Part shown: positions 19,722 to 20,934 of the stretch, in pieces | How the letters are laid out: every line of letters begins with the position of its first letter | Numbering within the stretch: the first letter of the stretch is position 1 | Assembly (NCBI GenBank): GCA_039586575.1 | Contig: JBDHKD010000003.1 | Coordinates: 7,817 to 71,816 of the forward strand | Source of the DNA: Gemmatimonadota bacterium | GTDB lineage: Bacteria; Gemmatimonadota; Gemmatimonadetes; Palauibacterales; KS3-K002 | Direction of reading: 5' to 3' | DNA length: 64,000 nucleotides | Position numbers and translations under genes: made by a program | Notes under the pieces: model-generated | What the model was told of the DNA's origin: nothing | The model's input: the letters and a program-made list of their open reading frames with translations, nothing else | The model's database searches: none

Positions 19722-19750
19722 CGAACCCCGGCTCTTGACCGGGCGTTTTT
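19722..19750 (+). terminator. short rho-independent terminator after the TPR gene
   Basis: cccgg-ctcttga-ccggg followed by CGTTTTT (19744-19750). Confidence 0.5.
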
Positions 19751-19800
19751 CGTGTGCTAGTATATAGATACTCGATATATTGATACTCTATGTATCGAGG
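19735..19800 (+). promoter_or_regulatory. near-consensus sigma70-type promoter (TTGACC-17-TAGTAT) followed by AT-rich operator repeats upstream of padR
   Basis: -35 at 19735-19740 and -10 at 19758-19763 with a 17-bp spacer. Downstream direct repeat GATACTC x2 (19767, 19783) and inverted repeat CTCGATAT...GTATCGAG (19771-19799). Strikingly AT-rich for this genome. Confidence 0.6.
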
Positions 19801-19840
19801 TTCTATACCCGCAGGGGAGGCGGACGGACGAGGGGGGCCC

Positions 19841-20188
19841 GTGGAGAGACCGGTCATCGAGCCGCAGAGCCTGGCCAAGAGCTGCAACGAGGCGTTGATC
19901 CTCGCCTGCCTGGAGGCGGGCCCGCGGCACGGCTACCAGATCGCCCTCGACATCGAAGCGAAGGGCGGCGGCTTCTTTCGCTTCAACCACGGCACGCTGT
20001 ACCCGATCCTGCACAAGCTGGAGAAGGAGGGGCTGATCAAAGGGTCGTGGTCGGATGAGGCGGGGGCGCGGAAGCGGAAGAGCTACACGTTGACGGCGAA
20101 GGGCCGTCGCTACGCCGGCGATCTGCGGGCCGCCTGGCGTGAGTTCATCGAGCACTTCGTCGAGGTGGTGGAGGTCGAGGAGCGATGA
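19841..20188 (+). CDS. PadR family transcriptional regulator
   Basis: Winged-HTH region ILACLEAGPRHGYQIALDI...HGTLYPILHKLEKEGLI. GTG start at 19841 chosen; ATG 19790 lies inside the operator repeats and is less likely. Confidence 0.8.
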   Translation: MERPVIEPQSLAKSCNEALILACLEAGPRHGYQIALDIEAKGGGFFRFNHGTLYPILHKLEKEGLIKGSWSDEAGARKRKSYTLTAKGRRYAGDLRAAWREFIEHFVEVVEVEER

Positions 20189-20934
20189 CGAACTTCGCGG
20201 ACGTCTTGGGGCCGCTGAGCGCGCGGCTGCCGCTGCCGCAACCGGCGCGCAGCCGGGTGCTGTTGGAGGTCGCCGCCGACCTGGAGGCGGCCTACGAGCA
20301 CTACCGGGCGGAGGGCTGCTCGGAAGAGGAGGCGCGGCGGAGGGCGGCGGAAGCGTTCGACCTGTCGGACACGGCGCTGGCCGAGCTGGTAGCGCTTCAC
20401 ACGTCGTTTGCGCGGCGGATGCTGGACCGGCTGTCGAGCCAGGCTCGAACGCGGTGGGAGCGCTCGCTGCTGCTGATCGTGGCCGGGTTTCTGACCTACC
20501 TCGGCGTGGAGCTGGCTGTGCGCGGCGGGATCATAACGGATGCGGGATCGTTTGTCTGGCCCGTGCTAATTTGTGGCGCCGCAGGACTGCTCTTGGGGAT
20601 CACCAAGCTCTACCAGATCTACGTCAAGCAGGACCACGAGGTGCGGCGTGCGCGTCGTGGCCTGGACGCCATCGCGGTGTTGGCCGGCGCGCAGCTTCTT
20701 CTGGGGTTTTTCGGCGCCTGGTTCGAGCTCTACCTGGCGGCGGGACGTATCTCCCGCTCGGTGGATTACGCCCTGGTCCATCTGTTCAACTGGCTGCTGG
20801 GAAGCGCGGCGTTGCTCTCGGTGAGCCTCACGGGCGCGCTGCTCACCGCGATGCTCTGGTTCGCGGTGGCCAGCCGCGTCGCGGGGATCGAGGACGCGGA
20901 GGCGGAACTGCTGCTCGCAGCGAAAGGAGAATAG
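20185..20934 (+). CDS. PadR-coupled membrane protein with N-terminal HAAS/DUF1700-like helical domain and 4 TM
   Basis: 249 aa; start overlaps the padR stop (ATGA). N-terminal ...LLEVAADLEAAYEHYRAEGCSEEEARRRAAEAFDLSDTALAEL follows the DUF1700 pattern (EEREEIL.EY..HF.EG...G.SEEEII..LGSP.E.A). Confidence 0.6.
   Translation: MTNFADVLGPLSARLPLPQPARSRVLLEVAADLEAAYEHYRAEGCSEEEARRRAAEAFDLSDTALAELVALHTSFARRMLDRLSSQARTRWERSLLLIVAGFLTYLGVELAVRGGIITDAGSFVWPVLICGAAGLLLGITKLYQIYVKQDHEVRRARRGLDAIAVLAGAQLLLGFFGAWFELYLAAGRISRSVDYALVHLFNWLLGSAALLSVSLTGALLTAMLWFAVASRVAGIEDAEAELLLAAKGE

Follow-up and report, generated by a model that had tools for sequence, protein, structure and literature searches.

A small, apparently self-regulating padR-g2-g3 unit encodes a PadR repressor and two related membrane proteins

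The window, by which we mean the whole 64-kb stretch of DNA that was analysed, contains three genes that form a small, apparently self-regulating unit and encode a PadR repressor followed by two related membrane proteins, here called g2 and g3. Both membrane proteins are labelled 'hypothetical' in public sources, and the family is without a Pfam model. Sequence and conservation show that a sigma-70-type promoter drives padR, g2, and g3 as a single, translationally coupled unit, and the features discussed below are as follows:

19735..19763, forward strand: sigma-70-type promoter (consensus scan and whole-window scan)
19763..19777, no strand: candidate operator unit A, TATAGA-tac-TCGATA, 1 mismatch to TATCGA-N3-TCGATA
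19778..19792, no strand: candidate operator unit B, TATTGA-tac-TCTATG, 3 mismatches, at the centre of the 45-bp dyad
19793..19807, no strand: candidate operator unit C, TATCGA-ggt-TCTATA, 1 mismatch
19841..20188, forward strand: padR, a 115-aa short (subfamily-2, LmrR-like) winged-helix repressor (Pfam PadR)
20185..20448, forward strand: g2 residues 1-88, cytoplasmic helical adaptor of perm_prefix_1/HAAS-superfamily type (NF038403, AlphaFold2, hhalign)
20452..20520, forward strand: g2 residues 90-112, extra transmembrane helix TM0 (AlphaFold2)
20527..20898, forward strand: g2 residues 115-238, minimal three-TM MotA/TolQ/ExbB-like module (hhalign against the g3 family)
20937..21329, forward strand: g3, a 130-aa stand-alone minimal MotA/TolQ/ExbB-family protein (Pfam PF01618)
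21341..23737, forward strand: possible clade-specific operon extension (Pfam), made up of the next four genes
21341-21805, forward strand: DUF4345 gene
21819-22319, forward strand: PEMT/ICMT-like membrane methyltransferase
22279-23076, forward strand: SAM methyltransferase
23123-23737, forward strand: 204-aa protein

The promoter consists of a -35 element, TTGACC (19735-19740), a 17-nt spacer, and a -10 element, TAGTAT (19758-19763), with an extended-10 TG at 19755-19756 and a transcription start predicted near 19770. The earlier note described TTGACC-17-TAGTAT as near-consensus and as the best sigma70-like promoter of the window. The element is present, but 'near-consensus' is generous for an agreement at 9 of 12 positions; its rank holds, as it is the only site on either strand of the 64-kb window that unites at least 9/12 matches, a 17-nt spacer, A2 and T6 in the -10 element, and the extended-10 TG. 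The lowest GC content of the window (32% vs 67.6%) falls in a 60-nt stretch starting at 19746. The pattern TTGAC-N17-TAtTAT is kept in about 17/20 orthologous loci, and the whole arrangement of -35, 17-nt spacer, -10, and units A and B is kept upstream of padR in about 17-20/20 of them. This conservation of promoter and operator persists even though identity among the encoded proteins falls as low as 37% and different genes flank the loci.

After the promoter come the repeats reported before, namely two GATACTC copies (19767-19773 and 19782-19788) and the inverted repeat formed by CTCGATAT (19771-19778) with GTATCGAG (19792-19799), all of which are present. A repeat search found a 15-nt direct repeat with 15-nt spacing (19761-75 and 19776-90, 87% identical) and a 21-nt inverted repeat (19763-83 and 19787-807, 81% complementary), and these repeats resolve into three abutting 15-bp palindromes of the form TATCGA-N3-TCGATA that fill positions 19763-19807. 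Unit A, which overlaps the last base of the -10 element and the predicted +1, has at most 3 mismatches in 17/20 loci. Unit C has at most 2 mismatches in about 12/20 loci and is missing from the more divergent ones. In about 20 orthologous loci, the upstream region retains the promoter together with two or more of the palindromes. Conservation in the region peaks at the A/B junction, TCGATATAT(A/C)GA. Within the window, no other match to TATCGA-N3-TCGATA with at most 1 mismatch was found; a site with 2 mismatches at 58023 is located within a long ORF, and no further copy of the operator was convincing.

When metagenomes were scanned with TCKATATATMGANNNTCKAWA, 31 of 120 matches preceded a PadR domain by 39-151 nt and invariably shared the orientation of the PadR gene, on contigs with a GC content of 31 to 73%. 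The membrane partners of the PadR proteins found in this way vary (FtsW-like, ADOP, and DUF2812). Since the palindrome precedes PadR genes with such varied partners, it probably serves as operator across a broad clade of PadR proteins.

The identification of the first gene product as a PadR regulator was confirmed by Pfam PF03551 (88.5 bits against a cut-off of 27, E 2.9e-25). Translation of padR is assigned to the GTG at 19841, which has GAGGGGGG ahead of it, and the homologues are called at 115-116 aa. An ATG at 19790 was considered as the start and rejected, because this codon falls within the operator and the reading frame ahead of the GTG shows no protein-level conservation. The protein matches LmrR (3f8b, E 8.8e-11) and aligns to LmrR-type chains over residues 8-111, which places it in the type with a single C-terminal helix. 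Its invariant W99 aligns to LmrR W96, which we take to be a residue of the LmrR ligand pocket; because this tryptophan is kept, PadR might sense a ligand by itself. The best NCBIfam match was TIGR03433 padR_acidobact (82.1 bits, below the cut-off of 101.8).

The stop codon of padR and the ATG of the 249-aa g2 gene share an ATGA at 20185-20188, as the earlier note had stated, and this 4-nt overlap recurs in about 20/21 loci. The g3 gene starts 2 nt after the g2 stop with AAGGAG upstream. The order padR-g2-g3 is kept in 23/23 loci, which were fetched by g2 similarity, and in 3/3 contexts reached independently via g3 relatives, while the genes flanking the unit vary from locus to locus. The 'pair' of PadR and a membrane protein proposed previously is thus in its conserved form a triad, with the third gene present in every locus. 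Accordingly, although the features listed for 19722-20934 are all there, that interval ends short, and with g3 included the end of the unit moves to 21329. No paralogues of padR, g2, or g3 were found in a search of the window. A genome scan run with a 17-sequence alignment gave a family of 735 clusters at 50% identity, mostly from Gemmatimonadota and other poorly studied phyla. A reading of the locus as anti-phage defence (ZorA-like MotA) was dropped, as there were no PADLOC matches.

Downstream of the triad, the genes between 21341 and 23737 are all on the same strand, with gaps of 11-46 nt or overlaps, and no terminator was predicted. The PEMT-like and methyltransferase genes stand behind the triad only in the closest relatives and not in loci L003 or L005.

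The g3 protein contains 3 TM helices, lacks a large cytoplasmic domain, and matches PF01618 (MotA/TolQ/ExbB) with 23.4 bits against a cut-off of 22.9, as do 16/16 of its orthologues (best 3.3e-9), and its matches in the PDB are TolQ (8vlw, E 5.1e-5) and ExbB (5sv0, E 2.8e-4), with alignments covering only the TM2-TM3 region of these 220-244-aa chains. In ExbB, T148 (TM2) and T181 (TM3) are, as we assume, pore-lining threonines. When the alignment columns were read by eye, the TM2 position was occupied by an invariant Gln (Q66) in g3 and by Ala in g2, and the Thr of the TM3 position was kept in g3. Neither the Pfam-annotated neighbours of the examined loci nor the genes beside g3 in the window include an ExbD/TolR/MotB B-subunit gene.

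In g2, the AlphaFold2 model places four long hydrophobic helices at residues 90-112, 115-146, 153-191, and 193-248, in agreement with the earlier description, in which 4 TM helices come after a soluble, helical N-terminal domain. The last three of these helices align with the g3 family over 127 columns (hhalign 98.8%, E 1.3e-16; reversed and shuffled controls at most 0.4%), and from this alignment we conclude that the three-TM module of g2 is a paralogue of g3. Its relation to TolQ/ExbB would then be transitive, via g3: profile searches of the PDB with g2 returned ExbB or TolQ in 6/7 matches, aligned on TM2-TM3, at E-values of 0.04-5 (best direct values for the module: ExbB 0.038, TolQ 0.068), and PF01618 itself matched only 2/20 members (E 0.19). 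A Foldseek search with the full g2 model found nothing at E<=0.001 (best E 0.37); its top ranks were crowded with ExbB, TolQ, PomA, and MotA, at TM-scores of about 0.3. The remaining helix, TM0, joins the cytoplasmic domain to the membrane module, for which the positive-inside rule suggests an N-out topology. At the cytoplasmic end of TM0, residue 92 is acidic (E in 95% and D in 3% of 145 representatives).

Residues 1-88 are the best-conserved part of g2, with E28, D32, G44, A50, L68, and H72 standing out among the same 145 representatives. The predicted helices of this domain span residues 5-14, 21-42, 47-57, and 62-72, and they include three consecutive helices of which the third is kinked as in HAAS (47-57 and 62-72, with a break at 58-61 in the AlphaFold2 prediction). 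The domain matches NF038403 perm_prefix_1 over residues 14-59 (28.3 bits, E 1.1e-6; curated cut-off 30), and this model matches 19/20 homologues (best E 3.9e-8). The earlier note had predicted a HAAS/DUF1700-type domain that would be recognized by an HMM search of the 249-aa protein. Formally, this prediction failed, as Pfam HAAS (PF22564) or DUF1700 matched 0/20 family members even at E<=1, and the PF22564 model matched 9/9 canonical DUF1700 proteins as a positive control. Direct hhalign of the domain with these nine proteins gave only 5-9%, which carries no weight when taken alone, in a plausible register in which F58-D-L-S61 stands where HAAS has L-G-x-P; the GxP is thus replaced by D-L-S, and S61 is invariant in the family alignment. 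A sequence search of the PDB with the N-terminal profile returned only spurious haemoglobin matches, and Foldseek with a model of the domain built without an alignment found nothing, neither 2O3L nor any HAAS structure.

A connection to HAAS does appear through intermediates. In FtsW-like PadR partners, perm_prefix_1 (NF038403) and Pfam HAAS (PF22564) match the same residues, and hhalign joins these proteins both to the g2 family (94.1%, E 1.3e-7) and to canonical HAAS (94.1%, E 1.2e-7; 92.0% with query and template swapped), whereas shuffled controls reached at most 1.5%. The N-terminal domain of g2 may therefore be linked to HAAS indirectly, in two hhalign steps. Its context is also as expected for HAAS, since the domain is N-terminal to four TM helices and a stand-alone PadR gene adjoins g2 in all 23 loci and in the three g3-seeded contexts. 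Of the earlier domain assignment, the soluble helical domain before 4 TM helices therefore stands and a HAAS link may exist transitively, whereas the direct Pfam match and the GxP motif are absent.

Taken together, the unit is most likely an autorepressed membrane-signalling module of the PadR-HAAS type with a new TolQ/ExbB-like sensor, and we think it reasonably probable that padR-g2-g3 as a whole works as such an autoregulated three-gene module. In mechanistic terms, PadR dimers very probably bind the abutting 15-bp TATCGA-N3-TCGATA array, from the -10 element to about +38, and would thereby switch off the transcription of their own operon. Family context suggests that (i) the N-terminal domain of g2 is a divergent HAAS/perm_prefix_1 adaptor that contacts PadR, (ii) TM0 and the minimal TolQ/ExbB-like three-helix module hold g2 in the membrane, and (iii) this module probably forms a complex with g3, its stand-alone paralogue. 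If envelope, lipid, or ion-gradient stress changed the membrane complex, the adaptor could be altered in turn, so that PadR is captured or released and expression of the operon shifts. In the clade of the window, the output probably includes the downstream membrane methyltransferase genes. The lack in g2 of a direct Pfam match and of the GxP motif, which has been proposed for the contact between HAAS and PadR, would count against signalling of this kind, as would the 15-bp spacing of the sites, which is unusual beside the canonical PadR operator.

The tryptophan kept in PadR would also fit a simpler arrangement, in which PadR would, like LmrR, detect a small hydrophobic ligand on its own and g2 and g3 are only the regulated effectors, e.g., membrane-protective or transport proteins, with g2 sending no signal to PadR. 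The short LmrR-like PadR, matching 3f8b with W99 at the position of LmrR W96, is consistent with this, as is the Listeria DUF1700 membrane protein Lmo0600, which acts as an effector and causes a phenotype when overproduced (PMC6624303). In addition, only the triad is conserved, which means that the membrane proteins must make up at least part of the output. We nevertheless regard a purely ligand-sensing PadR as unlikely, as the most conserved part of g2 is its soluble N-terminal domain, the family of this domain occurs essentially only beside PadR genes, and the 4-nt overlap with padR hints that the two proteins are made in matched amounts; in a protein that is cargo only, such a domain would be superfluous. 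A different doubt concerns the palindromes, which could instead act as a 5'UTR RNA hairpin or as promoter/UP-type AT-rich DNA, given that the 21-nt arms, with their 81% complementarity, might base-pair in the RNA and that the region is the most AT-rich of the window. However, the half-sites are conserved while the N3 spacers vary without compensation (17/60 complementary, with 25% expected by chance), and the fold energy of the 5'UTR is ordinary (z = -0.64). The absence of spacer covariation and the unremarkable fold point to a protein site rather than an RNA hairpin, and the RNA-structure reading was rejected on these grounds. As the motif also recurs 39-151 nt upstream of 31 PadR genes with unrelated partners and GC contents, any role other than that of a PadR operator is very improbable.

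A further proposal starts from the membrane part and treats g2 and g3 as a minimal TolQ/ExbB-type ion-conducting ring, in which TM0 with E92 would replace the missing ExbD/TolR/MotB helix and ion flow or the proton-motive force would set the conformation of the adaptor and thereby control PadR. If this were true, the unit would sense membrane energisation directly and link it to transcription. The significant relationship of g3 to TolQ/ExbB, the paralogy of g2, and the Pfam-annotated neighbourhoods free of a B-subunit gene all agree with such a ring, as do the Thr kept in TM3 of g3 and its invariant Gln where ExbB/TolQ have the TM2 Thr. The helices of the B-subunits ExbD, TolR, and MotB run from inside to outside, and so would TM0 in its predicted topology, whose cytoplasmic end is acidic in 98% of the 145 representatives. 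The corresponding aspartates of MotB (D32) and ExbD (D25) are buried, whereas E92 lies at the membrane boundary between Arg residues; furthermore, the TM3 Glu and the large cytoplasmic domain of ExbB are missing, and the structure search was not significant. We therefore consider an ion-conducting sensor quite improbable. The same low credence is given to the combined view that g2 and g3 form an ion-conducting ring which switches PadR instead of performing mechanical work and that TATCGA-N3-TCGATA is the operator code common to a large PadR clade not yet described. On this combined view, PadR proteins sharing the motif would be paired with many different membrane partners.

The autorepressed PadR-HAAS-type module favoured here has precedents and differs from each of them. 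On the basis of genomic data alone, Ravi et al. (mSystems 2024, PMC11237479) suggested that HAAS-PadR-like wHTH dyads could take the place of two-component systems, which supports the earlier mention of PadR-HAAS pairs as proposed signalling units. These dyads likewise have a short stand-alone PadR gene upstream of and overlapping a membrane-protein gene whose product begins with a small helical domain and continues into several TM helices, and fusions of HAAS to 'uncharacterized 4TM' domains are listed among them (PMC11237479). Unlike in the dyads, g2 has no direct PF22564 or DUF1700 match and carries D-L-S in place of GxP, and the unit combines a TolQ/ExbB-like TM part with a constant stand-alone paralogous partner. 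Neither MotA/ExbB/TolQ nor Gemmatimonadota is mentioned in PMC11237479, and relative to the proposed PadR-HAAS scheme, this membrane part and its partner are what would be new. In this family, the adaptor is joined to a reduced relative of the TolQ/ExbB/MotA ion-channel subunit, and no B-subunit gene was found close by. Such a partner therefore offers a concrete and testable idea of the input, namely membrane energisation or envelope state, within a compact three-gene system that has a well-defined promoter and a candidate operator on which this idea can be tested.

The lltR operon of Listeria monocytogenes (lmo0599-lmo0601; PadR, DUF1700, and DUF4097/Toastrack), which is autorepressed about 100-150-fold, likewise has three genes in the order PadR, HAAS membrane protein, and third protein (PMC6624303). 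In operons of this type, the third gene encodes a Toastrack/DUF4097 protein or a lipoprotein rather than an ExbB-like paralogue, the HAAS domain is canonical (9/9 match PF22564), unlike the g2 domain, and the TATCGA-N3-TCGATA motif is lacking. An lltR-like layout was also seen on plasmids (L030, L031, and L033). In comparison with the A-subunits of the 5:2 ion-driven motors (TolQ/ExbB/MotA; PF01618; PDB 8vlw, 8odt, and 5sv0), g3 and the g2 module align to the TM2-TM3 hairpin and have three TM helices in the same inferred N-out, C-in topology. Both are about half the size, however, and have neither the TM3 Glu nor the cytoplasmic domain that separates TM1 from TM2; no ExbD/TolR/MotB gene was seen nearby, and they are tied to a transcription factor instead of TonB, TolA, or the flagellar rotor.

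PadR partners with perm_prefix_1 (NF038403), such as the FtsW/RodA-like proteins and the ADOP permeases (TIGR03434), share the N-terminal domain model with g2, and these systems, with padR_acidobact (TIGR03433), likewise have a PadR partner and carry the same operator motif upstream of padR. The proteins of the window differ in scoring below the curated cut-offs (28.3 vs 30 and 82.1 vs 101.8) and in a g2 membrane domain that is ExbB-like and not FtsW-like or FtsX-like. LmrR has the same short PadR-s2 fold at a similar length, with a Trp of the C-terminal helix likewise conserved, and its operator overlaps its own promoter and serves autoregulation, a layout that the padR of the window appears to share. 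The canonical PadR operator is ATGT-N8-10-ACAT (PMC3506622), whereas the element described here has no ATGT/ACAT pair and consists of two or three abutting TATCGA-N3-TCGATA copies with an unusual 15-bp period. Because it recurs upstream of PadR genes with FtsW-like, ADOP, and DUF2812 partners, this palindrome is a candidate for the operator consensus of an entire PadR clade and differs from the textbook ATGT-N8-ACAT.

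Three adjoining genes are discussed here: padR, the membrane-protein gene that follows it (g2), and a MotA/TolQ/ExbB-family gene after that (g3). These genes and the signals upstream of them are as follows:

19735-19763, forward strand: sigma-70-type promoter, with -35 TTGACC (19735-19740), a 17-nt spacer, -10 TAGTAT (19758-19763) and TG ahead of the -10
19763-77: putative operator unit A, 1 mismatch to TATCGA-N3-TCGATA
19778-92: putative operator unit B, 3 mismatches
19793-807: putative operator unit C, 1 mismatch
19841, GTG start: padR, 115 aa (homologues called at 115-116 aa)
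20185-20934: g2, 249 aa, its ATG overlapped by the padR end
20937-21329: g3, 130 aa, starting 2 nt past the g2 stop

An ATG at 19790 was rejected as the padR start, as it lies inside the operator and the upstream frame is conserved as DNA only. Relatives of g2 were gathered by a word-indexed search (29 matches), a genome scan (18 loci, for the most part in Gemmatimonadota MAGs) and an exhaustive profile search, which returned 735 representatives at E<=1e-3, with 263 of them reaching 1e-30; almost all of the 150 representatives listed are 240-280 aa long. The order padR-g2-g3 was present in every fetched locus while the flanking genes varied, and an independent start from g3 relatives led to the same triad in three of three cases. 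Therefore, judged from gene order, the conserved unit is three genes and not two. The earlier note had described a PadR and membrane-protein pair in which the downstream gene overlaps the padR stop; the two genes do adjoin and share an ATGA, but a third follows in each locus retrieved.

Some loci carry additional genes. In a more distant triad branch, there is a small fourth ORF overlapping the stop of g3 (loci L026, 3902-4111, and L028, 3881-4087); its product of 68-69 aa has two hydrophobic segments (MEMRSILVGLTIGICTFALTWATVRHFTGLAHEH...), and the window has no such ORF. The L028 triad is also flanked by MscL (295-717) and an MscS-type mechanosensitive channel gene (4231-6207), an arrangement seen in one locus only, which at most hints at membrane tension or osmotic stress as the cue. 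In locus L003, a second PadR pair lies directly upstream of the triad (2080-3494), in which a 188-aa long PadR (PadR plus Vir_act_alpha_C) overlaps a 282-aa protein without a Pfam match.

The PadR product matches Pfam PadR at 88.5 bits, which bears out its proposed identity, while its top NCBIfam model, padR_acidobact, scores under the cut-off. The nearest solved structures are LmrR-type short PadRs, and W99, invariant among homologues, aligns with LmrR W96; PadR may therefore sense a ligand directly. The g2 N-terminus, previously suggested to be of DUF1700/HAAS type, was harder to place. The search against Pfam HAAS (PF22564) and DUF1700 was formally negative, with 0/20 g2-family members matching at E<=1, while PF22564 matched all nine positive controls (annotated PadR-adjacent DUF1700 proteins taken from plasmids), and direct hhalign of the g2 N-terminal set to these nine reached only 5-9%. 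The link runs instead through NCBIfam perm_prefix_1, which matches 19/20 family members (window g2: E 1.1e-6, 28.3 bits, cut-off 30) and, at 40-62 bits, the FtsW-like PadR partners found in the operator scan. On the same residues, Pfam HAAS matches four of seven FtsW-like partners (27.0, 20.8, 18.5 and 13.6 bits), the best equalling the 27-bit cut-off. Their N-terminal alignment matched both the g2 family (hhalign 94.1%, E 1.3e-7) and canonical HAAS (94.1%, E 1.2e-7; 92.0% with query and template swapped), with reversed and shuffled controls at <=1.5%. The AF2 model of the g2 N-terminus has three helices, the third broken (5-14, 21-42, 47-57|62-72), and the break falls at F-D-L-S, aligned with HAAS L-G-x-P. 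From these profile comparisons, we conclude that the domain probably represents a divergent HAAS-superfamily branch, reached via intermediates only, in which the GxP signature is lost. It is the best-conserved part of g2 (E28 100%, D32 99% and H72 97% in 145 representatives), which fits a conserved protein-protein interface.

For the membrane parts, g3 matches Pfam MotA_ExbB at 23.4 bits (cut-off 22.9). The model also matches 16/16 g3 orthologues (best 3.3e-9), and a PDB search with the g3 profile brings up TolQ (5.1e-5) and ExbB (2.8e-4), with TM2-TM3 as the aligned part. Residues 115-238 of g2 can be aligned over their full length to the g3 family (hhalign 98.8%, E 1.3e-16, 127 columns; reversed and 20 column-shuffled controls <=0.4%). 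The g2 profile meets ExbB or TolQ in 6/7 PDB matches at weak E-values (0.04-5), and Foldseek with the g2 AF2 model gave no significant match. So, at the level of sequence, g2 consists of a putative adaptor that an extra helix, TM0 (90-112), joins to a minimal TolQ/ExbB-like module of three helices, and g3 is a stand-alone copy of that module. From the charge distribution, TM0 would be exactly what keeps the adaptor cytoplasmic while the module stays N-out; the acidic residue at its cytoplasmic end (E92) is 98% conserved in the 145 representatives.

The padR promoter agrees with consensus at 9/12 positions and is therefore good, not near-consensus as had been claimed; its standing as the best in the window held, as a scan of both strands found no other site at which a match of >=9/12 goes together with optimal spacing, an extended-10 TG and A2/T6 of the -10. 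The 60 nt in which it sits have the lowest GC in the 64-kb window (32% versus 67.6%), and TTGAC-N17-TAtTAT is kept upstream of padR in nearly all of 20 loci. A second promoter-like match within the operator array (TTGATA-18-TATACC, 19780-19809, forward strand, 9/12) probably arises from the AT-rich palindromes themselves. A terminator-like hairpin (CCCGG-ctcttga-CCGGG followed by CGTTTTTCG, 19727-19753, forward strand) overlaps the -35 hexamer and could end transcription of the TPR gene upstream; the other loci, whose upstream genes differ, do not keep this hairpin. That TPR gene is one of two tandem paralogues of ~571 aa (16242-17957 and 17977-19695, forward strand), each with a TM segment at the N-terminus and TPR repeats at the C-terminus, one with a weak FlgO-like match; neither is kept beside the triad elsewhere.

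The repeats noted earlier are all present: GATACTC starts at 19767 and 19782, and CTCGATAT (19771) makes an inverted repeat with GTATCGAG (19792). A repeat search found a 15-nt direct repeat of 15-nt period and 21-nt inverted arms (19763-83 and 19787-807), which we read as a run of three 15-bp palindromes placed end to end. Units A and B are kept in nearly all of the 20 loci and unit C in ~12. An RNA element would be the alternative reading, but the half-sites are conserved while the N3 spacers vary without compensation (17/60 complementary), and the padR 5'UTR fold is not unusually stable (z = -0.64); together these point to a protein-binding site. No further match with <=1 mismatch occurs in the window, and the only other with <=2 (TATCGAGGATCGAGC, 58023-58037, forward strand, inside a 372-aa minus-strand ORF) is probably due to chance.

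Scanning metagenome contigs for TCKATATATMGANNNTCKAWA gave at least 120 matching stretches (L039-L158). Among those listed, 31/120 hold a PadR ORF, and all 31, on contigs of 31 to 73% GC, have the motif in PadR orientation and centred 39-151 nt before the start of the PadR domain. Only 6 of the 31 are triads. The remaining PadRs, which share a TCGATATAT(A/C)GA-N3-TCGATA element, are followed by FtsW/RodA-like proteins with N-terminal perm_prefix_1, an ADOP permease, and DUF2812 or 'YPxxFR'-type ('LLRxYPxxFRxxYG') proteins. The ~89 matches without PadR, mostly on AT-rich contigs, are probably chance. The motif is absent from canonical PadR-DUF1700 operons on plasmids, and the textbook PadR operator is ATGT-N8-10-ACAT (PMC3506622). 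Given this placement, the varied partners and the absence from canonical DUF1700 operons, the palindrome most probably serves a distinct and broad PadR clade as its autoregulatory operator.

In most loci, no output other than the triad is possible. In the window, the genes after g3 (21341-23737, forward strand) encode DUF4345, a PEMT/ICMT-like membrane methyltransferase, a SAM methyltransferase whose gene overlaps the preceding one at 22279-22319, and a protein of 204 aa. They share the strand of g3 and are very closely spaced, no terminator is predicted, and the two methyltransferase genes may be co-transcribed with the triad in the window's clade. In the closest relatives (L001, L006-L008), too, the triad is followed by PEMT-like and methyltransferase genes, which points to an output in this clade that modifies lipids or the membrane. 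Elsewhere in the window, at 53765-53929 (forward strand), there is a second, weak PEMT-like similarity (tblastn E 1.3e-4 to the 166-aa protein).

The comparisons show the gene order and coupling, the conserved promoter and operator, the tie of this operator to PadR genes, and how the domains are related. In the scheme we propose on top of this, PadR dimers would repress the operon from the palindromes, which reach from the -10 to about +38; the adaptor of g2 would touch PadR, g2 and g3 would assemble within the membrane, and a membrane or ion-gradient cue would alter PadR availability. Compared with bona fide A-subunits, the g2 and g3 modules are without the large cytoplasmic domain, and no ExbD/TolR/MotB gene occurs in any annotated neighbourhood examined. 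Judged by eye in the alignments, the ExbB TM2 Thr position is an invariant Gln in g3 and Ala in g2; the ExbB-type TM3 Glu is missing from both, while g3 retains the TM3 Thr. That the two form a B-subunit-less ion-conducting ring reporting membrane energisation to the repressor seems rather improbable to us. Both products are labelled hypothetical in public sources, and in the accessible literature we found none of the TolQ/ExbB-like sensor module, the obligatory paralogue, the GxP loss or the shared 15-bp-period operator; the HAAS paper (PMC11237479) makes no mention of MotA, ExbB or TolQ. PadR with a HAAS-type membrane partner is a kind of system already known from comparative genomics, and that paper puts the HAAS-PadR dyad forward as an alternative to two-component systems, in line with the signalling role the earlier note gave such pairs. 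This dyad and the Listeria lltR operon (PadR-DUF1700-DUF4097), with its 100-150-fold autorepression (PMC6624303), are precedents for the proposed padR-g2-g3 scheme.
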